In this document: in pieces, positions 3,441 through 15,552 of the stretch
Layout of the letters: each line of letters starts with the position of its first letter
Position numbering within the stretch: position 1 is the stretch's first letter
Assembly (NCBI GenBank): GCA_030917685.1
Contig: JAUPUG010000018.1
Location: forward strand, 1 to 50,660
Length of the DNA: 50,660 nucleotides
From: Patescibacteria group bacterium
GTDB taxonomy: Bacteria > Patescibacteriota > Minisyncoccia > Phycocordibacterales > CAIZLB01
Direction of reading: 5' to 3'
The notes under the pieces: generated by a model
The model's database searches: none
What the model was told of the DNA's origin: nothing
Seen by the model: only the letters and a program-made list of their open reading frames with translations
Made by a program: the position numbers and the translations under genes

Positions 3441-4361
3441 CTACGATACCACATTTTGCCGTTTTAACAAGATTTGGATAGCCTTGGTCACTATTGGCAA
3501 AATATCATCATAAAAATTGAGGGTGAGAATATCTTTTACATTAAACCACTTAGCATCAGTCAAACCACCACTAGTTCCAAGCGTAAGTGGTGTATATTCT
3601 GCTTTACCAAGAAAATACGCTACTTGTTTTCGCAACTTTCCCTCTTCTGGATGTGAAGCTATGTACTCATTGTTTGCAAGCTCGTCTTCTATGACAATAT
3701 CAATACCCATCTCTTCTTTTATTTCTCGAATCACACCTTCTTTTACAGACTCGCCAGCTTCAAGTTTCCCTTTTGACAAAGTCCAATGACCGAACACATC
3801 GTGTACGAGAGCAAGATACATTTCACCTTCGTGGAAAGCATAGACAACAGCACCACCTAGAACTTTGATGGGCATTTCTTCATATGGAACTTCTTTTTTC
3901 TTTTCTTTCTCTTTTCGAGTAGATATTTCTTCTTTTCCAGGTTCACCCATCTCTTTATACACAGCACCAAGCACCCCGTTTACAAATTTTCCAGATGTTT
4001 CCCCACCAAATGATTTTGCAAGTTCAATTGCTTCATTAATCGCCACCTTTGCAGGTACTTCTTTTCTATCTCCAAAAATGAGCTCAAAGAGACCGATTCG
4101 TAGTACATTTCTATCCACCATAGCTATTTTGTCTATAGGCCATTCTGGGGCTGCTTTTTCAATAATAGTATCAATATCCTTTCTTTTCTTAAGGACACCA
4201 TCAGCCAGGTTTTTTACAAATGAAAAATCACCCATACCAGGCGCAAATTCATCAACATGCCGGTGAAGTATTTCTTCTATTGTGTTGTCGGGAGCACTAC
4301 GAAAGTCTCGCTCGAAGAGTGATTGGAGAACTATTGATCTAGATAAGTGCCGATTTGCCAT
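3441..4361 (-). CDS. nusB: NusB antitermination factor fused to a C-terminal Nudix hydrolase domain
   Basis: N-terminal half is NusB-like (SRSIVLQSLFERDF, AINEAIELAKSFGGETSGKFVNGVLG). A Lys/Glu-rich linker follows. The C-terminal half carries the Nudix box GKLEAGESVKEGVIREIKEEMGI (about nt 3700-3775). The ORF track opens at TTG 4370; the first ATG is at 4361. Confidence 0.8.
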   Translation of the reverse strand: MANRHLSRSIVLQSLFERDFRSAPDNTIEEILHRHVDEFAPGMGDFSFVKNLADGVLKKRKDIDTIIEKAAPEWPIDKIAMVDRNVLRIGLFELIFGDRKEVPAKVAINEAIELAKSFGGETSGKFVNGVLGAVYKEMGEPGKEEISTRKEKEKKKEVPYEEMPIKVLGGAVVYAFHEGEMYLALVHDVFGHWTLSKGKLEAGESVKEGVIREIKEEMGIDIVIEDELANNEYIASHPEEGKLRKQVAYFLGKAEYTPLTLGTSGGLTDAKWFNVKDILTLNFYDDILPIVTKAIQILLKRQNVVS

Positions 4362-4444
4362 AAGGTACAATTGTGTTTAGTGCGATGAGTATGAGCAAGT
4401 ATGCGATGGAACGCAGTACTATGAATAAATCTGATTCGAATTTA

Positions 4445-6022: not shown

Positions 6023-6051
6023 TTGACTTGTCAAGCCAATTGAGGTATAAT
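6023..6051 (+). promoter_or_regulatory. Promoter TTGACT-17-TATAAT for YkuD gene
   Basis: TTGACT at 6023-6028, a 17-nt spacer, TATAAT at 6046-6051. The ATG at 6116 leaves a C/A-rich leader of about 58 nt without an SD. Confidence 0.65.
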
Positions 6052-6115
6052 GTATACGTTCAATTCAGACATCACCCACCACCCCGCACAACAATACCCT
6101 CAATCAGATCACACC

Positions 6116-6919
6116 ATGAACACCAAAGTTCTTCACATCATCGCCCTTTTCGTCACGCTTCAACTCGCGACGGCAATGGCGCAATCCCAGGTAGTCCCGA
6201 AGGCTACCAACAAGGCTGTTTTCATCGATTTCACTACTCAGACAGCAGTGCTCGCTGAAATCCGCCCTGGACCATCTCCTGATGGCAAACAAGTCGTCAG
6301 GACGATGAAAATCTCCAGCGGACGCTTCGGTATGGATACCCCTCCATCTCCGCCAGACGGCTGGCTCATTGGAGAGAAATATCCGAAGCGTTGGTCCACA
6401 AAATACGGATGCTGGATGCCCCACGCTGTCAACCTCGGAATTAAAAACTCCGCAGGTCAAGATGACGGCGATTACGCACATGAAGGAAGAGTCCCAAATG
6501 GTGGCTATGCAGCCTCTCACGGATGCCTGCGACTGCAGACAAAGGATGCTCCATTTTTCTACCAATGGGTCGAAACAGGAGTGACCCGAGTCTTCACGAC
6601 CGGCTCCGCCAGGGAATACCTCGAGAAAAACTTCGACGGGTGGAAACTGCTGGAGTTTAATCTTGATGGCAGCATTAAGGGTTTCATCCGAAATCCCGAC
6701 GGCACCCTCACTGACGCCTTCATGGATTATGCCCGCAAAGGTAAAATCGATGTCAACAGGCAGGATGCGAATGGAAACATCGTTTCTGCCGACAAAGGCG
6801 TTATGGGATTCGAGTTCTTCGACAAGCCATGGAAACAAGGCGTGCCAAAAGCAGAATTCGAGAAAGCCCAGATGGCAACCTTCAAGAAAGCCTTCGGACC
6901 GCTCTACCAAGGGCAGTAA
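6116..6919 (+). CDS. L,D-transpeptidase (YkuD) domain protein with signal peptide
   Basis: YkuD catalytic motif HEG...ASHGCLRLQTKDA...V..GVTRV. Signal-like N-terminus MNTKVLHIIALFVTLQLATAMA. The ORF-track start at 6050 overlaps the -10 box, so the ATG at 6116 is preferred. High-GC segment. Confidence 0.7.
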   Translation: MNTKVLHIIALFVTLQLATAMAQSQVVPKATNKAVFIDFTTQTAVLAEIRPGPSPDGKQVVRTMKISSGRFGMDTPPSPPDGWLIGEKYPKRWSTKYGCWMPHAVNLGIKNSAGQDDGDYAHEGRVPNGGYAASHGCLRLQTKDAPFFYQWVETGVTRVFTTGSAREYLEKNFDGWKLLEFNLDGSIKGFIRNPDGTLTDAFMDYARKGKIDVNRQDANGNIVSADKGVMGFEFFDKPWKQGVPKAEFEKAQMATFKKAFGPLYQGQ

Positions 6920-6939
6920 CCTCTTTATGAGGATCACAA

Positions 6940-6973
6940 ATGCCGCAACCCCACCATAGGTTGCGGCATTTTT
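6940..6973 (+). terminator. Rho-independent terminator after YkuD gene
   Basis: ATGCCGCAACC ccaccata GGTTGCGGCAT followed by TTTT. Confidence 0.8.
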
Positions 6974-7057
6974 ACGTGTAAAATTTTTGAGTCATCTAGA
7001 TAACTAATCTATAAAATATAAGTTAATGTGCGGGCGACCAATAGATAAAAATGGGAA

Positions 7058-7101
7058 TAAAAAAAACTCCGCGCTACGATTTTCACGTAGACACGGAGGT
7101 T
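7058..7101 (-). terminator. Rho-independent terminator after 7121..7651
   Basis: Minus strand reads AACCTCCGTGTCTACG tgaaaat CGTAGCGCGGAGTT followed by TTTTTT. Confidence 0.65.
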
Positions 7102-7120
7102 CGAGGATATCGAACAGTTT

Positions 7121-7651
7121 TTAACGACGGGCATGACCTTGTTGAAGGCCCGCCAGAACGTCAGCCGGAATGGTTGGGTCTGGATTCCAAGGGGCTTGTG
7201 GGTCCCCGTAGAATTTAGCCTTTTGTCCGTTGCGAACCCAGATCGGATTGACACCCGAGCGGAATTTTGCTTGGACTGCTGGCGGCCAGTTTTCGAAGCC
7301 GTCTGGCATGATCCTGGTCACTTTGGGCGATGAGACTTTCATCGCATCGGCAAAGTTAGCAGGCATGGCGAGAGGTTCGTGACCAGAGGCTGAAGCTTGC
7401 GAGCCAGCACTCCGATCTCCACCGTGACCCAGATTCCATCCCTGCGAAGGGGTGAAACTGGACCGGGGGGAACAGCCTGACATGCCGAGGATCAGCAAGA
7501 CTGTCAGGACAACTGCCAGAACTGCAAGGCAGATCCAGCCGATGTTGATCGCCCACTTCTTGGCGTCAAAGCCAGTAGTAGGCGCTGCGGTGGTGCAGGT
7601 TGCAGGGGCGGCAGCAGGAGCTGCGGTGGGGAGGAGGGCGGGTGTGCTCAT
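7121..7651 (-). CDS. Hypothetical exported or lipoprotein-like protein (Pro/Ala/Thr-rich N-terminus, one TM ending LILGMSGC)
   Basis: Longest ORF in a 55-60% GC segment. It is framed by a consensus promoter (7729..7757) and a hairpin/T-run terminator (7058..7101) in the correct orientation. The track start at 7738 lies inside the -10 box, so the ATG at 7651 is preferred. No family motif recognised. Confidence 0.55.
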   Translation of the reverse strand: MSTPALLPTAAPAAAPATCTTAAPTTGFDAKKWAINIGWICLAVLAVVLTVLLILGMSGCSPRSSFTPSQGWNLGHGGDRSAGSQASASGHEPLAMPANFADAMKVSSPKVTRIMPDGFENWPPAVQAKFRSGVNPIWVRNGQKAKFYGDPQAPWNPDPTIPADVLAGLQQGHARR

Positions 7652-7728
7652 GGGGTGCGGATGTTTGGGGGTTTTGATTTGGAACTGAAAGGTGCAATGT
7701 TCAGAGTGAGGATCACTTGAACATACAT

Positions 7729-7757
7729 ATACTATCACAGTATATATTTAATGTCAA
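7729..7757 (-). promoter_or_regulatory. Promoter TTGACA-17-TAGTAT for 7121..7651
   Basis: Minus strand reads TTGACA (7757-7752), a 17-nt spacer, then TAGTAT (7734-7729). Confidence 0.6.
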
Positions 7758-7925: not shown

Positions 7926-10900
7926 CTATGCGGCAACAGTAGGTACATCTGGAGTTGATGGAGCTACTGTAGGTGTCTCCCCTTTTCCAGATTTCCGTTT
8001 ATGTAATTCCCCACCTATATTCTTATATTCTTTTAATCCATTAATTAATTTTGAAGCATCAAGTATCTCAATTCCTGAATCACCAGCAGTACGATATTTT
8101 ATACCAAGCCAGAAGAGTGCTTTTTTAATTGTTGGGTCACTTGATTTTGTCCCCCAAACGTCCATTCGTTTGATTGATCTATTGAGAACATCTTGTATTT
8201 GCGCTGTGAATTCTCGAACTGCTTCTGGATCGTCGAAATCAACTTCGGCCTTCGACTCATCCCAATTCACCTTTCTCACACTATTATCTGTAGCACTGAA
8301 TCCACTATCCCACATTTCTATTGGAGCCTTACCTTCACGGAGGGTTGCTTCTGCTCGTCGTGAAGAAGTATATAATCGTGAATTTTTAGGCCCAGCATAC
8401 GCTACAGCTGTTCGATCTGAAGCATCTTTTCGTGATGTCTTCAATCTAGCACCCATTATTGAGTCTTCTCCAATTGCACTATTTGAATATCCACCCACGG
8501 CAGCGTAGGACTTCGCCCTCATTGCAAAATTTGCTCCCGAAGAATTTATATTATATTTCTTGAATCTCGACTGTACCTCGAGGTATTGGAAAAATCTAAT
8601 ACCCACCTGTAAAAGAGGTTTTCGAATATACGAATCTGGATCGAAATCAAGCTGACCCATATATGAATCTACATCCTTGTTGGTATCGAACTTTTCAATA
8701 AAGTTTGAAATATATTCTGGGGCAATACCTTTATTATCAGCATCGTTACTTACAAGTGATAATTCTGGTGCGCCTTCTCCTCTATCTCTTTGTCTAACTA
8801 ACACTGCATCATTTAGTAACTTTCTAACATAACCGATTTTTGCTCTTTCTCGTGGGACGACCTCATACATGAGTCTAACATTCATATCTGGATAATCTTT
8901 TTTGAATCTCTCAATTTCTTTCAACGTATCATCTGGCTTCACTGGAACACCAAGCTTATCTCGATCGGGATGGTTTACAAAAAGTACAAGTTCAAAAGAA
9001 TCCTTATCTGCTGTCTGTTTTGTATAAGATTCAAGAGAGTTATAAATACTTTCTCCTTCCTGGTGACCAGCAACAGGAATACATACTGCCAATCTGCATT
9101 TTTTATCCATAGGCCCCGCATCGGCTGCCATCTTTTTTAGAAGCTCTAGATGCTCTTTTTCATTAGAATTCAAATAATCATCGATTTCTTTTTTCTCATC
9201 CAACTCAGCAGAAGGATTCTCCTGAAGAGTTTTTGAAAGCCAAGTCTTCCGAGTCCTATCAATCATCTCTAGCTCACCACCCTCTACTCCACTGCCATAC
9301 ATAAAGTAATCTGAAGGTACTGCTATTGGCTTTTTATTACCAAGCCTTTCAAGAGGCTGTCTGCCAAATACTGGAATAAATGGAGGAGGCACCATATTTC
9401 TCTCAGGCTCTAATAGGTCGAACCGAGTTACAGTCTGAGGTACTGGCATTGAATCGGGATTGAAGCTTATAAACTTCGTTCGTGTTCCAACCAAACTCTT
9501 TACAGTCGAAAGACCTTTACCTTCATCAGTAGCCATGATTCTGAAATGCTCTAAACCGTCAGTTCCCGCACCCTGAGCATGTCCTACTTCGGCAAATTTT
9601 CCAATGAACTTAAGTTGCGGACCATCCTTTGTATCAACCGTTTTGAAGAACGTCTTTGCGATTTCGCTATTTGGGTCAATGATTGCATTACCATTCGCAT
9701 CGATAGGAACTTCGACGGGGTTAAACTGAGTGTCTCGAGAAAGTGAGAGCAGTAACTTTAACTTGCCTTGTGCGAGTGCATTCTTGATATCTACCGACAA
9801 TTCTCCGTGATGAGATCCACCAGCCTTCATTCCACCAATGCTGTATACAAAATTTCCATCCGCATCTATTCCTGACTTGTGATGACCACCCCATCCAAGC
9901 TTCAGTTCGTTTTTATCCGCACGAACTGTGTCATTGTCATACCAACCGTCTCGATGAATACGCTTGAATACGTCGGGATTATTTTCTACATACTGTTCTG
10001 ATGATAGGTTTTCTGAAACACCTGACTTCGCGAGATCTACTTCAGGTAGCATTGTTGTACCTGTACGCACGAGTACACCATGTTCACGAAGCATATCAAT
10101 AGACGCCTGATCTAACTGACCATTTTCAAATTTTACAGGATGAGGAAGTTCCTCTCCATCAATACTGAATCGATATATTGAAGGCGTTCCACCTGGGATT
10201 GGCTCCAAAGAAATTCCGTCTGGGAATTCGATAAGTTCCTTACCAGGAAGAACATCAATATGCTGTTCAACCAAGCTATCATCAATAGCTCTGCCTGCAA
10301 TATATTCCCTAAGAGCCTCAAGCACGGTTGCGTTCGGTTCATTATCATTTACCTCATTTCCAGTGAGAGACTCGACTCCTCTTTCCAAAAGACCCTGTTG
10401 GTCATCACTTGCGATAGCCATAATCTCCTGTACTCCCGCGCCGATAATTAGACCACTCGCTAAGCCTTTCAAAGCAGCAGCAGCGACTCTTCTTCTCTTC
10501 ATAAGTGAGAACATTTTGTTCTTCTGTTCAATACCGGACTCACCTGTCATAAATGCACCATTTCGAGATTCTAAAGCCGAGCCAAAGAACTCGTCGAAAT
10601 TTCTTGATCCAGACACTGGCACCGAACCAGCAGACGTATCCAAGATTCCAGACTCATACGCATCTCTCAATATCACCTTTGCTTGTGCCCTTGAAATATC
10701 AAGTTTAAGTCGTTCCTGTTCAACGCTTTTCGAATCTGTATAACTCAACAAATCAAGATCATGATTATCTGAAATCTGGATTCTGGATTCTGCTTGCAAT
10801 AATAGGCACATCGCATTATTGAATGCATCTGGCGAATCAATATTTTTGATATTTTCCAAAATCTGATCAGCGATATCTCCAGCATGTACTGTTTCGTATC

Positions 10901-11918
10901 GAACTTTTTCCATTTCCTCTCTACGATCCAATCCATTCTTTATAGATTTTCCTCCTTTTGCCATCATTCTAGAATGTTGTTTTCGCTCGTCTTCCACTTT
11001 GTGGCTTTCTCTCATCGCCCCAAAGGCTGACCCAAGGAGTGCTGACATACCAAAAGTACCCCATGCCAGAGCCTTACTTCGAGCAGCACTTTGACTTACT
11101 TTACCAATTACTGATCCTGCTATTGCAACTGCAGATGCAATAGTTGTTTCATCTACAAATCTTCCAACAAAACTATTTCTTATATATTCGGTGACCTTAT
11201 CAAAATTATTATATTGAGCTTCTGTTCTTACACCCAATCGCGCCTCGCCATATACTATCTCTACTTCTTTATCTAATTCTTCAATCGTAATATCGTGCTT
11301 AAACTTTTCCTTTAGTTCTTTTGCAACCTCGAGAAGATTGTCAGCAAATCTCACATTACTTACTTTCTCGTCGGTACCAGAATGTAGTGCTGTAATACGA
11401 CGTTTTTCCTCAGCAAACGCCTCATCAGTGAATGTATTGTGCTTATCATTAATATATTCAAGGACAAGCTCTTTAACATTAGAAACTAAGCTCCCCTCTA
11501 GGACTGTATCCTTCTCATCGTATGTTGATCTACTCTCTCCAGTATGCATAACGTCTTCATCTCTTAACTCTGAAGCAAAACGATCCAGTACAGCACTCAT
11601 GGCTTGTTGGTGCGCATTTTCTGAAGCTTCCTCATCAGAATATAGATTACCAGTCTCAAGAATTCTTTGACGCGCAAGACTTATTTCCTTTTGTCGATAA
11701 TATTCTCGAGCTAAATTGTGTTTCCAAATTTTCTTAAAAAAACCTCTTACGCCCGTAAGCTCACTCTTATCTTCTACTAAACGTTCTTCTGCTATATCTC
11801 TCGCTTGCTGTTCTATTGAATCTCCAGTGTCAACAATGACCAACTTCCTTTTTTTGGGATTTATCTCATCGAATTCTTCATGGTCTGCATCTCCGCTTAG
11901 ATATACTCGTTCGCTCAT
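7926..11918 (-). CDS. Giant (1330 aa) protein with two hydrophobic segments and a C-terminal GT-A (family-2-like) glycosyltransferase domain
   Basis: GT-A-like motifs at about nt 8440-9100: CRLAVCIPVAGHQEGESIYNSLESYTKQ, DxD-like SNDADN, GANFAMRAKSYAAVGGY, GEDSIMGARL. Hydrophobic stretches at about nt 11000-11160 and 10420-10500. The first roughly 930 aa have no motif I recognise. Confidence 0.75.
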   Translation of the reverse strand: MSERVYLSGDADHEEFDEINPKKRKLVIVDTGDSIEQQARDIAEERLVEDKSELTGVRGFFKKIWKHNLAREYYRQKEISLARQRILETGNLYSDEEASENAHQQAMSAVLDRFASELRDEDVMHTGESRSTYDEKDTVLEGSLVSNVKELVLEYINDKHNTFTDEAFAEEKRRITALHSGTDEKVSNVRFADNLLEVAKELKEKFKHDITIEELDKEVEIVYGEARLGVRTEAQYNNFDKVTEYIRNSFVGRFVDETTIASAVAIAGSVIGKVSQSAARSKALAWGTFGMSALLGSAFGAMRESHKVEDERKQHSRMMAKGGKSIKNGLDRREEMEKVRYETVHAGDIADQILENIKNIDSPDAFNNAMCLLLQAESRIQISDNHDLDLLSYTDSKSVEQERLKLDISRAQAKVILRDAYESGILDTSAGSVPVSGSRNFDEFFGSALESRNGAFMTGESGIEQKNKMFSLMKRRRVAAAALKGLASGLIIGAGVQEIMAIASDDQQGLLERGVESLTGNEVNDNEPNATVLEALREYIAGRAIDDSLVEQHIDVLPGKELIEFPDGISLEPIPGGTPSIYRFSIDGEELPHPVKFENGQLDQASIDMLREHGVLVRTGTTMLPEVDLAKSGVSENLSSEQYVENNPDVFKRIHRDGWYDNDTVRADKNELKLGWGGHHKSGIDADGNFVYSIGGMKAGGSHHGELSVDIKNALAQGKLKLLLSLSRDTQFNPVEVPIDANGNAIIDPNSEIAKTFFKTVDTKDGPQLKFIGKFAEVGHAQGAGTDGLEHFRIMATDEGKGLSTVKSLVGTRTKFISFNPDSMPVPQTVTRFDLLEPERNMVPPPFIPVFGRQPLERLGNKKPIAVPSDYFMYGSGVEGGELEMIDRTRKTWLSKTLQENPSAELDEKKEIDDYLNSNEKEHLELLKKMAADAGPMDKKCRLAVCIPVAGHQEGESIYNSLESYTKQTADKDSFELVLFVNHPDRDKLGVPVKPDDTLKEIERFKKDYPDMNVRLMYEVVPRERAKIGYVRKLLNDAVLVRQRDRGEGAPELSLVSNDADNKGIAPEYISNFIEKFDTNKDVDSYMGQLDFDPDSYIRKPLLQVGIRFFQYLEVQSRFKKYNINSSGANFAMRAKSYAAVGGYSNSAIGEDSIMGARLKTSRKDASDRTAVAYAGPKNSRLYTSSRRAEATLREGKAPIEMWDSGFSATDNSVRKVNWDESKAEVDFDDPEAVREFTAQIQDVLNRSIKRMDVWGTKSSDPTIKKALFWLGIKYRTAGDSGIEILDASKLINGLKEYKNIGGELHKRKSGKGETPTVAPSTPDVPTVAA

Positions 11919-11934
11919 GGTATTTTAATTAATA

Positions 11935-12243
11935 TTAGGCGCGATTTAATCCTAAATAAGTATTTCTAAAACTGAGCAGGGTCTGAGCTACGACTGAATC
12001 AATATCAGGTATAACCTCTTTACAGAACTTCTGCACATCATCATCTGAACCGGTTTCAAGTATGTCTTGAAATTCACCCAATTTTGTTTGGGGCACTCTT
12101 CTTAAAATACTTGCATTAATTAAATCTTCAACTCTTTGATACAAATCGGACTTCATCTGATTTAAAACTTCATCGCTTACGCCTACTATCTTCTTTTCTG
12201 AAATGAGTCTGCCGATAAATTCTTCAATTAATCTTTGATTCAT
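11935..12243 (-). CDS. Small helical acidic protein (102 aa), hypothetical
   Basis: Clean ORF 16 nt upstream of the giant gene on the same strand. From memory it resembles a small helical family common in CPR genomes (possibly DUF5663). Not verified. Confidence 0.65.
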   Translation of the reverse strand: MNQRLIEEFIGRLISEKKIVGVSDEVLNQMKSDLYQRVEDLINASILRRVPQTKLGEFQDILETGSDDDVQKFCKEVIPDIDSVVAQTLLSFRNTYLGLNRA

Positions 12244-12324
12244 AAAGTTAAATATAATTTATATAGTTCCAATTATATCATATAAATCAAGATTGCACGC
12301 GGGACAAATCTGGACTTAAAAACC

Positions 12325-12555
12325 CTAACTTTTAGTGGCAAATTTCAAAATTGCCCAATTTAATTGATCATCAAATTGACTTAATTCTGCTTCTATTTCT
12401 TTGTCTTCCGCAGATTCATCGAGAGATGCATTTTTAGTGTCATCCTCTTCAATCTTTTTTATAATATCGCCTGTGGCGTTATTAAATTGGCTTCGAATAT
12501 CCTTAAGTTTCTGGATATCATTGCTAATATTTGTTTGTAGATCTTGAATATTCAT
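12325..12555 (-). CDS. Small acidic hypothetical protein (76 aa)
   Basis: ORF begins 13 nt after the stop of the 486-aa gene on the same strand. Composition is helical and acidic. No motif recognised. Confidence 0.55.
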   Translation of the reverse strand: MNIQDLQTNISNDIQKLKDIRSQFNNATGDIIKKIEEDDTKNASLDESAEDKEIEAELSQFDDQLNWAILKFATKS

Positions 12556-12568
12556 AATGTGAATTTAA

Positions 12569-14029
12569 TTAAAGCGCAATTGATTCTGGCAATTTTCTTA
12601 TAATTTTATTTAGAATATCGCTTTTTAATTGACCTTTTAATGGTTCAATATTTCCAGCTTGTGAATATGTTTTAATCATATCTTTAATTGTAAGGGCAAC
12701 AGCTTCCCCTTCATCACTGAGTATTTCAGCAAATTCTTCTATCAAAGGCTCAGCCTCTTTTAACTTTTCAAGGAGATCTGCTGCAGTCGGAGTAAGCATA
12801 TTACTTAGTTTATGTAAGTCACGGAAATACGCAGTAAACTTTTCCATTCCCACTTCTCTACTTTCTACTCCAGGATCTGTTTCTACTTCCTCGTGCACTT
12901 CTGTTTCAGAGCCATCTGCAGCTTCGGCTCGAAGCCCACCTGCATTAGCATAAATTGCATTTCCTTCAACTACCGCTGTTGATTCGACATTATCTATGTT
13001 TTCTGAGTCATTTTCAGGAAGTTCACCATTACCCGCAGCATCGTCTATTGTCTCAATTGCTTCTGCTGGTTCACCTTTTTTAGACAAACCCATACTATCT
13101 TTTAAGGATTGCCATTTTTGTGCTCTCGCATCTATCTTCGCAATCTGTTTACTTAGTTTAACCTTAGTCTTTTCAGCATTAGCTATCGATTTTTCAGTCA
13201 AAGATTTCTCTTGTTTGAGTTCAGCTAATTGTGATTCAATCATCCGAATATCATCTTTCAATACACCTAACTCTTTTGCTTTAGCTAGAGCATCTGTGTA
13301 TGTTTCAATATTTTGGGATACTTCCGTTAAGGCAGCATTAGCACCTTCTATTTGCTCAGAGAGCGTGATCATGCTCTCTTTCTTTTCAGCATATCCTGTC
13401 TTTTCATGTATTGAATCAATGCGCGCGTCTATTCTTCCAGAGAAAGCTCCCTCTGCCGCTTCGATGTTGGCGGACAAGGTCTCTATTTCGGAGGCACGCA
13501 AATCTCTCTCTCTGGCTGACTCTTTAGCTTTTTCTTCCTCTGCTAGAATTTCTTGGTCCCGCTCAGCAGCTTTTAAATCTCTGTTTTTTTCAAAAACAGC
13601 TATCAATCCAGGATTCTTCATACTTTTCAAGGCCTCATCAAAGTTACCAACTTCAGTTTTTTTGAGTTCACTAAATATACCAACATTTCTAGTGTGATTA
13701 TCTATTTGATATCCTATATCTGAAATTTCTTTTCGCTTTAAATTAATGAGATTATTGCTATTGTCTCTTGATTTTAAAAACCTCCACTTCTCAATAGTAC
13801 TCATTCTAAGACTCTCTACGACATCATCTTTCCAATTAATAGCTATATCCTTTAACTCTCCAAATTTTTCATCCACTAGATCAGCATGATTATTAAAATC
13901 CAACATTCTTCCGGCAAACTCTACACCTCTATTTGCTACGATTTTCACCTTTTCGAGAATAGGACTTTCATTCTCTGGCTTCTCATCAAAATCATTTGAT
14001 GCAAATTTTTCTGCAGTGATAGTTGTCAT
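12569..14029 (-). CDS. Acidic coiled-coil protein (486 aa), hypothetical
   Basis: Long ORF rich in E/K/A/L heptad-like sequence (AELKQEKSLTEKSIANAEKTKVKLSKQIAKIDARAQKW). No TM segment or signal peptide. First gene behind the promoter at 14049..14076. Confidence 0.75.
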   Translation of the reverse strand: MTTITAEKFASNDFDEKPENESPILEKVKIVANRGVEFAGRMLDFNNHADLVDEKFGELKDIAINWKDDVVESLRMSTIEKWRFLKSRDNSNNLINLKRKEISDIGYQIDNHTRNVGIFSELKKTEVGNFDEALKSMKNPGLIAVFEKNRDLKAAERDQEILAEEEKAKESARERDLRASEIETLSANIEAAEGAFSGRIDARIDSIHEKTGYAEKKESMITLSEQIEGANAALTEVSQNIETYTDALAKAKELGVLKDDIRMIESQLAELKQEKSLTEKSIANAEKTKVKLSKQIAKIDARAQKWQSLKDSMGLSKKGEPAEAIETIDDAAGNGELPENDSENIDNVESTAVVEGNAIYANAGGLRAEAADGSETEVHEEVETDPGVESREVGMEKFTAYFRDLHKLSNMLTPTAADLLEKLKEAEPLIEEFAEILSDEGEAVALTIKDMIKTYSQAGNIEPLKGQLKSDILNKIIRKLPESIAL

Positions 14030-14048
14030 GTGTTTGTATTACTCACAA

Positions 14049-14076
14049 ATTATATATCAGATATCTGTATATTGAA
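14049..14076 (-). promoter_or_regulatory. Promoter TTCAAT-16-TATAAT (TG-extended) for the four-gene operon
   Basis: Minus strand reads ...TTCAATatacagatatcTGATATATAAT, followed by a 19-nt leader to the ATG at 14029. Confidence 0.5.
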
Positions 14077-14110: not shown

Positions 14111-14175
14111 AAAAACTCCGAGCTTCTCAGATAGTACACAATGATTGAAAGTGTAAAATCTTTTGAAACTCGGAG
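14111..14175 (-). terminator. Possible terminator with long structured loop after lipoprotein gene
   Basis: Minus strand reads CTCCGAG ... CTCGGAG, a 7-bp closing helix, followed by TTTTTG. The loop is about 46 nt, so this is a weak call. Confidence 0.35.
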
Positions 14176-14204: not shown

Positions 14205-14630
14205 CTACCGACAACGACGTTCCCAACGTCCTGTGAAGAAGTTGAAGAACAGAGGTTCAGGAGGCAACGGACGTCCCATCGGTGGACAGAAGTTTGCCTG
14301 GCCTGGACCCGCCCAGTTTTGACGATGCTGCAACGGGAACCCAAACATTGGAGATGGCTGTTGCCAACCCCGTTGTGGATAGCAACCGTGTTGCACTGGT
14401 ACTGGATGCCGGATGACCCTGCTTTGGCTGTAGATGCCGGGGTGTCCGGTTCTACAACCTGGGTCAAGCACAATGTTCCTTTGGAATGTGTGTTGACCTG
14501 GAAGGCCGGTAATTGGCCTGTAGTGTTCGGGCTGGCCTGGACCAAAAGTACCGCAGCGGATAAATCCGTCTGATGCACATGATGAGAGCAGCGCACAAGC
14601 GACTGTAAGACAAAGAGCTAAGTATTTCAT
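14205..14630 (-). CDS. Putative lipoprotein (141 aa), Pro/Gly/His/Gln/Arg/Trp-rich
   Basis: N-terminus MKYLALCLTVACALLSSC is a signal peptide with lipobox L-S-S-C. The ORF directly follows the promoter at 14691..14718. GC is about 52-53%. The overlapping 179-aa ORF in another frame lacks these signals. Confidence 0.55.
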   Translation of the reverse strand: MKYLALCLTVACALLSSCASDGFIRCGTFGPGQPEHYRPITGLPGQHTFQRNIVLDPGCRTGHPGIYSQSRVIRHPVPVQHGCYPQRGWQQPSPMFGFPLQHRQNWAGPGQANFCPPMGRPLPPEPLFFNFFTGRWERRCR

Positions 14631-14757: not shown

Positions 14758-15552
14758 CTAGTTCACAAACTCTGCGACCACCACAAATCTATCTGATTTT
14801 GAACCGAAACTATTACACGTAGAAAGCGTCAATAAATGCGCTTTAGTATCAAATGTTACCAATGTTTCGTCTTTGTCTACCTTATCAACTGAACGTACAC
14901 GGTATGTAAATCTCTTCCCTTCTGATTCAACATAAATAATGTCACCTGAATTTAAATTCTTTAATTCATTAAAAACTTTATATGCTTTGTTAATAACCAC
15001 AGCGTGACCTGTACTATGTCCAAAAATAAACATGTTACCGGTATTGATTGTACCCGAGCCTGGATAATACACTGGGCCTTTTTGCAGATCAGCATCTAGC
15101 ACAGCAGTCGATGTGTTTCGTGGAATGTACACTTTTGTATCTACAGCAATAGACGGGATAATAAGTCGAGTCGGTAAGCCAACTGTAGTTTTCTGTGTAT
15201 TAGTAGTTGGTCGATTATTAATCTGAGCATTTGTTACACCATTATTACCGCCAGTATTGTTTCCAGTACTATTCAAGATACCTAAAGCAGATTCTGAGAA
15301 TGGCAGTCCGAGTGGATTGTCGTTTTGAGAATTAGGACCAAAACCTGCTTGTGCCGACTGTTCTGTGTTGGTTCCCAGCACTCCACCCGCTATTCTATCT
15401 GAAAGAGTCTGACCATTTGATTGCTCAGTAAACTCACTTGGCAGGAGTCCAAAGAGAGCTAAAAACCCCGCAGAACCAAGAAAAATAAGCATAAACCAGC
15501 CTATAAAAGAGGCTTCCTTAGGGGAAAATAGTATGTTTAGGGGGTTTTTCAT
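14758..15552 (-). CDS. Sortase-family transpeptidase with N-terminal membrane anchor
   Basis: Catalytic triad context: GNMFIFGHSTGH (His), LLTLSTCNSF (TLxTC Cys), SDRFVVVAEF (Arg). N-terminal TM segment FIGWFMLIFLGSAGFLALFGLL. Confidence 0.85.
   Translation of the reverse strand: MKNPLNILFSPKEASFIGWFMLIFLGSAGFLALFGLLPSEFTEQSNGQTLSDRIAGGVLGTNTEQSAQAGFGPNSQNDNPLGLPFSESALGILNSTGNNTGGNNGVTNAQINNRPTTNTQKTTVGLPTRLIIPSIAVDTKVYIPRNTSTAVLDADLQKGPVYYPGSGTINTGNMFIFGHSTGHAVVINKAYKVFNELKNLNSGDIIYVESEGKRFTYRVRSVDKVDKDETLVTFDTKAHLLTLSTCNSFGSKSDRFVVVAEFVN

Follow-up and report, generated by a model that had tools for sequence, protein, structure and literature searches.

A two-gene module of Patescibacteria pairing a DUF5663 protein with a giant protein that carries an exchangeable glycosyltransferase cassette

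Several glycosyltransferases of the GT2 family, of the PcManGT/Dpm1-like, TarS, TarP and RmlT types, join a catalytic domain to a beta-rich accessory or oligomerisation domain. A second described architecture is that of the polymorphic toxins (LXG-Lap, prePAAR-Eag and CdiA/Rhs), in which a constant N-terminus is followed, at a junction motif, by a C-terminal enzyme that recombines. Here we describe a locus that bears likenesses to both, found on a 50,660-nucleotide stretch of DNA (the whole of which is called the window below) from a Patescibacteria group bacterium (assembly GCA_030917685.1, contig JAUPUG010000018.1, positions 1 to 50,660). What had been an anonymous cluster of four open reading frames (ORFs) becomes a defined and widespread two-gene module with named residues, boundaries and alleles, consisting of a gene for a small DUF5663 protein and a gene for a giant protein of 1330 amino acids whose C-terminal part is a glycosyltransferase (GT) cassette. 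To our knowledge, almost nothing is known of how Patescibacteria construct their envelope and recognize their hosts. Much of bacterial diversity is accounted for by these organisms (PMC10633639). The literature searched holds no description of the 845-residue N-terminal part of the giant (the platform), of its pairing with DUF5663, of cassette exchange at a fixed junction or of a restriction to Patescibacteria, and the patescibacterial giants mentioned in the Lipocone paper are of a different kind. The catalytic domain is of a known kind (GT2), and it is the platform, its partner and the exchange at a fixed junction that we have not found described.

The pairing of DUF5663 with the giant protein

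The 102-residue product of the third ORF of the cluster (11935-12243, minus strand; isoelectric point (pI) 4.78) is a member of DUF5663 (Pfam PF18908, 30.4 bits against a gathering cut-off of 23.7, E 6.1e-7), and the ORF that follows it on the same strand (7926-11918) encodes the giant, made up of the platform, a linker and a cassette of the GT2 family with a GT-A fold. A DUF5663 ortholog is present directly 5' of the giant gene, on the same strand, in 48 of the 48 loci that could be tested (those in which the N-terminus of the giant and enough upstream DNA are present), with gaps between the two genes that mostly measure -17 to +35 nucleotides (nt). In each of the neighbourhoods of eight giant homologues, whose identities lie between 85% and 29%, DUF5663 stands immediately upstream, and no other neighbour is common to the distant loci compared. 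All of the orthologues are acidic, with net charges between -4 and -16, and their pairwise identity follows that of the platform (r=0.81), not that of the GT cassette (r=0.26). DUF5663 also remains beside the platform in loci where the GT2 domain has been replaced (L005, L008, L027, L038, L049 and L055). The conserved unit is therefore a patescibacteria-specific two-gene module, DUF5663 plus giant, and not a four-gene operon. DUF5663 has no assigned function, and neither the term nor the genomic pairing with the platform was found in the literature searched; a word-indexed homologue search with the 102-residue protein returned four close relatives only.

An original prediction, made from the letters of the window without database searches, had proposed a four-gene operon in which the products of the first three genes act as chaperone or scaffold partners of the giant, and had named conservation of the quartet across genomes as a way to check it. 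That comparison of gene neighbourhoods bears out the DUF5663 gene and the giant gene, adjacent in all 48 testable loci, and does not bear out the genes for the 486- and 76-residue proteins; the quartet as a whole is limited to the two near-relative contigs L009 and L066. The idea of small partners consequently survives for one small acidic protein, DUF5663, and fails for the other two products. The further statement that no characterised counterpart could be named holds up, as Pfam, NCBIfam, PADLOC, PHROGs, PDB sequences and Foldseek yield only DUF5663 and the GT2 fold.

Homologues of the giant number 79, and all of the named sources belong to the candidate phyla radiation (Minisyncoccia, Kaiserbacteria, Uhrbacteria, Moranbacteria, Parcubacteria and Saccharibacteria) or are given as plain "bacterium"; for most of the homologues the alignment is full-length, at 27-45% identity. 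When species genomes of GTDB were scanned, in which the lineage labels of some bins are evidently unreliable, 53 further loci were added, from Saccharibacteria, Paceibacterota and from Uhr-, Kaiser-, Nomura-, Moranii-, Magasanikii-, Komeili-, Buchanan-, Gribaldo-, Davies-, Peri- and Berkelbacteria. Most of the hits in these genomes thus also belong to the candidate phyla radiation, in agreement with the original guess of Patescibacteria. When residues 1-860 were searched with HMMER against 1.84 billion cluster representatives (clustered at 50% identity), 945 matches passed E<=1e-3, and 538 of them passed E<=1e-30; all 150 of the matches listed were at least 928 residues long. The platform is kept at full length and at 30-45% identity between lineages, and is found once per locus. 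In a metagenome-assembled genome of Ca. Uhrbacteria (L021, CALRGY010000005.1) the giant is 35% identical to that of the window and the contig has no blastn similarity to the window. Two loci labelled Woesearchaeota and Methanosarcinales (L045 and L051) carry a cassette that is 42-45% identical to the window's cassette in long proteins without the platform, which reflects either transfer between episymbiont bacteria and archaea or mis-binned contigs.

Family alignments show that the giant is conserved along its whole length. Its first 255 residues (11154..11918, minus strand, as for all features of the giant) form a conserved domain of mixed helix and strand that matches no family and contains the motifs GFFKKIWKHNLAREYYRQKEI and GVRTEAQYN. 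They are followed at residues 256-302 (11013..11153) by two weakly hydrophobic helices, rich in glycine, alanine and serine and with GxxxG-type spacing, that are separated by a short basic loop; the hydropathy of this pair (residues 254-302) peaks at 1.33 and 1.22, and its predicted local distance difference test score (pLDDT) is below 50. Residues 303-477 (10488..11012) are conserved and helical, with E304, R312, D389 and L390 invariant and pLDDT mostly of 81-91. The most hydrophobic segment of the protein, VAAAALKGLASGLIIGAGVQEIMAIA (residues 478-503, 10410..10487; hydropathy 1.75), is preceded by KRRR, has invariant G489, G493 and E498 and a nearly invariant Q497, and reaches the classical hydropathy threshold of 1.6 in only 47% of 234 members. 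The paired hydrophobic segments that had been predicted for the giant are thus present as the weak Gly/Ala-rich pair at residues 254-302, and a third segment is found at residues 478-503. The platform ends with a beta-rich central domain (residues 504-843, 9390..10409) that belongs to no known family and carries the motif WYDNDT..FDKNEL, with W659, T664, D668 and E671 invariant; in a model of residues 505-1330 its pLDDT is 83-96 in most blocks of ten residues, with dips. At the junction between platform and cassette is the linker PPPFIPVFGRQPLE (residues 844-857, 9348..9389; P..IP..GR.PLE), which is kept in all classes of GT cassette and in members with other C-termini than GT2.

The platform has no relative in sequence or fold in our searches of Pfam, NCBIfam, PADLOC, the PDB and BFVD. 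An AlphaFold2 model of residues 1-900 was of moderate quality (pLDDT 70), and Foldseek matches to it were limited to E 0.3 in the PDB and E 0.018 in BFVD, with negligible template modelling scores (TM-scores); we took as noise the matches that involved pore-forming toxins, tape-measure proteins or Fabs. A search of PDB sequences with the giant found nothing. Neither the sequence nor Pfam revealed a signal peptide or a known secretion domain in the giant, and no LXG, PAAR, TPS or Rhs-core trafficking domain was found in residues 1-860 with Pfam, NCBIfam and PADLOC.

In Saccharibacteria, longer DUF5663 paralogues of about 145 residues occur just 3' of the giant gene (for example L007:12478-12915), and the DUF5663-giant pair adjoins the gene for IF-2 in two loci. 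Among known chaperone folds are the C-terminal domain of trigger factor and the LTXXQ-motif family. Both of these were matched by the predicted fold of SEML1_0163, one of two DUF5663 genes (SEML1_0162 and SEML1_0163) that are listed in a transposon sequencing (Tn-seq) study of Southlakia epibionticum (PMC10633639 Tables S1/S2, the fold matches in Table S2). Over three passages SEML1_0162 was called as giving a growth defect and then twice as essential (GD/ES/ES), and SEML1_0163 as non-essential and then twice as giving a growth defect (NE/GD/GD); both were flagged as members of a core family and as enriched in Patescibacteria (PMC10633639). The gene order in S. epibionticum is S1, IF-2, SEML1_0161 (767 residues, essential), SEML1_0162, SEML1_0163, fmt, def and priA (PMC10633639), and in the Saccharibacteria locus L007 the DUF5663-giant pair stands within the same synteny. 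That SEML1_0161 is a homologue of the platform that lacks the GT is for us a lead and not a result.

Modularity of the C-terminal cassette

The swappable cassette spans residues 858-1330 (7929..9347, minus strand), with a GT2/GT-A core at about residues 940-1290 (nt 8049-9101). In an AlphaFold2 model of residues 505-1330 the overall pLDDT is 83 and reaches about 95 over residues 890-1300, and a Foldseek search of the PDB with this model gave 148 matches at E<=1e-3. The best 50 of these 148 (to E 1.3e-5) are all glycosyltransferases or polysaccharide synthases, and the matches listed include PcManGT (8e-10), hyaluronan and chitin synthases, AvpGT, TarS, TarP, RmlT, BcsA and K4CP. The giant of the window has no GT match in Pfam or NCBIfam. 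GT2 models of Pfam do match six of 27 homologues (PF00535 in six, with a best E of 1.7e-9, and PF13641 in five), so the GT-A domain that was originally predicted is found both by structure and, in relatives, by sequence family. A DxD motif, D1059-A-D1061 (nt 8736-8744), is nearly invariant in the 27 homologues, in which A1060 does not vary, and is invariant in the nine closer ones; it aligns to the DAD of the GT2 structure 6p61 in a weak PDB profile alignment. The family profile reaches only E 0.14-0.33 against the PDB, with three of four matches to GT2-type glycosyltransferase chains. E1151-D1152 is likely the catalytic-base motif, and the cassette also contains the motifs VCIPVAGHQE, VNHPD, SNDAD and GED. 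The window cassette agrees with the class-0 consensus at all of the motifs checked and by its motifs looks catalytically intact.

The cassette has a history that differs from that of the platform. Over residues 1-850, a homologue of the giant on contig L064 (P0002) matches the window giant at about 100% identity, which drops to 52-84% beyond; at the nucleotide level the two contigs share 99-100% identity from 12243 to about 9400 and then 63-79% across the cassette. The dense mismatches begin at 9334, where the linker codons (9348-9389) have just ended on their 3' side. By platform, the window groups with L064 and L066 groups with L009, and by cassette the window groups with L066 and L064 groups with L009; since these groupings conflict, recombination accounts for the pattern and rate variation does not. 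The incongruent block in these close strains also takes in the downstream lipoprotein and YkuD genes. The YkuD gene and the gene for a Pro/Ala/Thr-rich lipobox protein group the window with L066 against L009, and so apparently belong to the same recombined block as the cassette.

Four more independent pairs of giants show a fall in identity from 66-93% to 13-55% at the same alignment columns. Over 13,203 pairs the identities of platform and cassette are hardly correlated (r=0.19), and certain pairs combine 75-82% identity in the platform with 26-28% in the cassette. At least five classes of cassette can be told apart, with mutual identities of 19-29%, and each of the five largest retains the DAD motif and the linker. 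These comparisons indicate that the cassette is decoupled from the platform and has been exchanged between lineages at a fixed linker.

A GT2 cassette is found in 158 of 231 platform-bearing members; the other 73 have none that is recognisable, and some of these are perhaps truncated ORFs. In one homologue (P0042) the linker is followed by GT9 and PHA_gran_rgn domains in place of GT2, and the non-GT2 C-termini of four loci (L005, L049, L055 and L038) belong to no Pfam family, that of L005 having no PDB sequence match either. Domains located 3' of the GT in homologues include a Ser/Thr kinase (P0012 and P0044), a J-domain (P0015 and P0016) and DUF362. Directly 3' of the giants in L047, L048, L052 and L061 are ORFs that consist of a GT only and start at the post-linker position, and two of these free ORFs join the cassette to a Hanks-type Ser/Thr kinase, which precedes the GT in one (L052:4329-7112) and follows it in the other (L048:5366-7927). 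In L005 a kinase gene is located two genes 3' of the giant on the opposite strand. Two ORFs without a Pfam family, L008:12807-16526 (1239 residues) and L005:12398-13858 (486 residues), follow giants that lack a GT2 C-terminus and might supply the missing activity in trans. The L005 ORF was rejected as a counterpart of the 486-residue protein of the window, to which it is equal in length but unrelated.

The upstream genes and the surroundings of the module

The coordinates of the four minus-strand ORFs, and the gaps of 13, 81 and 16 nt between them, agree with those originally predicted. The first ORF (12569-14029) encodes an acidic coiled-coil protein of 486 residues (pI 4.76) and the second (12325-12555) an acidic protein of 76 residues (pI 4.28). 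The description of the first three products as acidic and free of enzymatic motifs is supported by their computed pI values (4.76, 4.28 and 4.78) and by the lack of any enzymatic family match in Pfam, NCBIfam, PADLOC and PHROGs; scans of all four proteins with these libraries gave only DUF5663 and sub-threshold coiled-coil noise. The 486-residue protein has four homologues among 5.8 billion proteins, each at least 76% identical, and its coiled-coil matches in Pfam are weak and every one below the cut-off. Among the loci read, its gene is present only in L009 (470 residues) and L066 (498 residues). The 76-residue protein has no family in Pfam, NCBIfam, PADLOC or PHROGs and is found only in L066 and L009, at 89-91% identity. 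These two contigs are syntenic with the window, and their giants are 85% (L009) and 95% (L066) identical to that of the window; they alone contain the complete quartet, which is missing from every other locus read. Neither gene is present in loci where the giant is at most 45% identical. The C-terminus of the 486-residue protein and the 76-residue protein were considered as diverged copies of DUF5663 and rejected (profile E >0.1), and small ORFs 5' of DUF5663 in distant loci were rejected as relatives of the 76-residue protein, to which they are unrelated. From this distribution, the two genes appear to be upstream additions in the lineage of the window that stand outside the conserved machine, and they may be co-transcribed with the pair.

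A promoter-like site is located 5' of the 486-residue gene (14049..14076, minus strand), with a weak -35 element (TTCAAT, 14076-14071) and a perfect -10 element (TATAAT, 14054-14049) 19 nt before the first ATG. The region is nearly invariant in L009 and L066 (91% mean column identity). Within the 81-nt gap, an extended -10 (TGaTATAAT, 12272..12280, minus strand) that reads TGaTACAAT in L009 and L066 is a possible internal promoter for the DUF5663-giant pair. Both of the originally predicted TATAAT sites are therefore found, in regions that are conserved in L009 and L066. A consensus promoter scanner listed neither of them, the first because its -35 is weak, and found 17 sites in the region against 19.1 in shuffled sequences, so it is conservation, and not statistics, that supports these promoter calls. 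A terminator-like hairpin with a T-run (14117..14131, minus strand), whose stem region is conserved in relatives, ends the upstream gene for a lipoprotein of 141 residues and thereby marks the 5' boundary of the unit.

The genes on either side were originally described as GC-richer cassettes for secreted proteins with a sortase nearby, and this is what we see: their guanine-cytosine (GC) content is 0.51-0.56 against about 0.39, their products have signal or lipobox-like N-termini, and a sortase (14758-15552), a YkuD protein and PKD/CARDB surface proteins are encoded near the cluster. The synteny of the flanking secreted-protein genes and the sortase is limited to the near-relatives L009 and L066. 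The three immediate neighbours (6050-7738 and 14205-14630) encode the YkuD protein, an L,D-transpeptidase that bears a signal peptide, the Pro/Ala/Thr-rich lipobox protein, and a lipoprotein whose lipobox reads LSSC. Further away, a single ORF (3441-4370) combines NusB (residues 10-139) with a NUDIX hydrolase domain (residues 188-285), a fusion that also occurs in L009. A scan of the window detected zero tRNA genes and zero Rfam matches, and an origin of the cluster from a prophage or a known defence system was rejected, as PHROGs, PADLOC and the other library scans gave nothing beyond DUF5663 and coiled-coil noise.

Possible roles and comparison with known systems

We tentatively favour, ahead of the alternatives discussed below, the interpretation that the giant is a patescibacteria-specific, probably membrane-associated glycosyltransferase that acts with a dedicated DUF5663 partner to diversify an acceptor destined for the envelope. 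The hydrophobic, Gly-zipper-like helices would tether the platform to the membrane on its cytoplasmic face, and DUF5663, made together with the platform, may bind it as a dedicated (stoichiometric) subunit or chaperone. From the cytoplasmic side, the GT2 cassette would glycosylate the acceptor from a nucleotide sugar; this acceptor could be a surface protein before its export or a lipid- or polymer-linked molecule, and the beta-rich domain may help to bind it. Recombination at the linker would replace the cassette, so that related strains would carry different GT2 classes and presumably different surface glycans. Domains of the GT2, GT9, kinase and J types depend on nucleotide sugars, ATP or Hsp70, and the occurrence of such C-terminal domains together with the lack of a signal peptide supports a catalytic end in the cytoplasm. 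The envelope is suggested as the target because of the nearest GT2 structures and the polymorphism of the cassette. If the cassette does set a surface glycan, it would be a candidate determinant of strain-level specificity for phages or hosts.

Several observations weigh against this interpretation. Net charge around residues 478-503 is +4.1 before the segment and -1.2 after it (234 members), and if the N-terminus is cytoplasmic and the protein crosses the membrane once or three times, the positive-inside rule would place the beta-rich domain and the GT outside the cell, where an enzyme that uses nucleotide sugars could not work. Membrane association is itself uncertain, since 93 of 242 members (about 40%) have no segment that reaches a hydropathy of 1.6. 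No gene for an acceptor, a donor, a flippase or a glycan pathway is consistently linked to the module in the loci compared. The recombination among the close strains was an event larger than a swap of the cassette only, because the block includes the lipoprotein and YkuD genes, and the Tn-seq data bear on DUF5663 paralogues, whose link to a giant homologue in S. epibionticum is putative.

The charge pattern around residues 478-503 is what would be expected if the C-terminus acted beyond the membrane of the producer, and a rather unlikely alternative is a role as a host-directed effector, in which export or insertion of the giant would let its C-terminal enzyme act in the cytoplasm of the cell on which the epibiont lives, with DUF5663 as a secretion or holding chaperone. 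The Gly-zipper helices would then serve membrane insertion or translocation, and the cassette polymorphism would reflect an arms race with the host; an outward-facing head would make the giant a new kind of effector. The constant N-terminus, the conserved junction, the polymorphism of the C-terminal enzyme and the small acidic protein encoded just upstream fit this proposal, as do the extra cassettes 3' of some giants and the DUF5663 paralogue with a chaperone-like predicted fold (PMC10633639 Table S2), and the cytoplasmic cofactors required by the C-terminal domains would suit a foreign cytoplasm equally well. However, no immunity-like gene is conserved downstream, where the genes differ in every distant locus and some are convergent, and no secretion-system gene is consistently adjacent in the loci compared. 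The giant has neither a signal peptide nor a known secretion domain and no PADLOC match; its variable end is GT2 in 158 of 231 members instead of a range of unrelated toxin folds, and the conservation of the platform (30-45%, full-length, once per locus) looks like that of a housekeeping protein. A broader form of the proposal, in which the pair is an ancient, patescibacteria-wide device for host interaction that extends its C-terminus outward and delivers a polymorphic head into the host cell while DUF5663 acts as a holding chaperone, is in our view unlikely. If true, it would represent a new class of contact-dependent effectors and a candidate molecular basis of episymbiosis across the radiation; swapping of the cassette would track host range, and the head would find nucleotide sugars, ATP and Hsp70 in the host.

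The favoured envelope-directed glycosyltransferase also has to be weighed against roles inside the producing cell. With a probability that we put as low as that of the host-interaction device, the giant could be a cytoplasmic hub for protein modification, in which the platform scaffolds GT, kinase and Hsp70-recruiting activities on the same cytosolic or nascent protein clients. The repeated fusion of the GT cassette to Hanks-type kinases in both orders (P0012, P0044, L052 and L048), the J-domains of P0015 and P0016, the position of the pair beside IF-2 in two loci, the lack of linked glycan-pathway genes and the replacement of GT2 by GT9 in P0042 (a family that includes protein heptosyltransferases) would all agree with such a hub, but cassette polymorphism at the level of strains is typical of surface structures and not of housekeeping protein modification, the conserved Gly-zipper helices suggest a membrane location, and the nearest structures are GT2 enzymes of envelope polymers and lipid-linked sugars. 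The four-gene machine that had been proposed originally, with the 486- and 76-residue proteins as scaffold or chaperone partners of the giant, is quite improbable: co-direction with gaps of 13, 81 and 16 nt, the conserved promoter-like region 5' of the first gene with the terminator-like hairpin before it, and synteny of the quartet in L009 and L066 speak for it, while the four homologues of the 486-residue protein (all at least 76% identical), the confinement of the 76-residue protein to L009 and L066, the absence of both genes wherever the giant is at most 45% identical although DUF5663 is always there, the conserved extended -10 between the two halves and the lack of any relationship of the two proteins to DUF5663 speak against it. 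We consider it most improbable of all that the giant is a processive exopolysaccharide synthase that polymerises and translocates a glycan in the manner of the cellulose, hyaluronan and chitin synthases. These synthases are among the top Foldseek matches and the gene stands alone, without other pathway genes, but the hydrophobic segments of the giant number only three, are weak and all precede the GT (residues 254-503), there is no multi-span channel, and the region that corresponds to QxxRW, a motif it lacks, reads SRLYTSSRRA. TM-scores normalised to the synthase chains are 0.21-0.37, and the match therefore spans the GT-A core and not the membrane part.

Of the described systems, the GT2 enzymes of the envelope (PcManGT/Dpm1-like, TarS, TarP and RmlT) have the GT-A fold, the DxD and the acidic E-D motif in common with the giant, at E 8e-10 to 1e-5. 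In contrast to them, the giant of the window misses all GT2 models of Pfam, its GT is placed C-terminal to an orphan platform of 845 residues with an obligate DUF5663 partner gene, its catalytic domain is exchanged at a fixed linker, and no teichoic-acid or polyprenol genes are linked. With the polymorphic toxins (LXG-Lap, prePAAR-Eag, CdiA and Rhs) the giant shares not only the constant N-terminus, the junction motif and the recombining C-terminal enzyme but also the extra cassettes 3' of the gene in some genomes, hydrophobic helices rich in glycine and a gene for a small acidic protein immediately upstream. It differs from them in that LXG, PAAR, Rhs and CdiA domains are missing, that neither an immunity gene nor a linked secretion system is found in the loci compared, and that its variable end is nearly always GT2 where these toxins have diverse folds. 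In comparison with chaperone-effector pairs (class I chaperones of the type III secretion system, Eag and Lap), gene adjacency and co-variation are shown for DUF5663 and the giant, and no secretion genes are linked. The large glucosylating toxins (TcdA/TcdB of family GT44, and Lgt and SetA of Legionella) likewise combine a GT-A domain and a region of hydrophobic helices in a very large protein. The order of these domains is reversed in the giant, no sequence or profile match connects it to these toxins and none of them is among the best 50 Foldseek matches; the giant belongs instead to a family that is restricted to Patescibacteria and looks vertically conserved.

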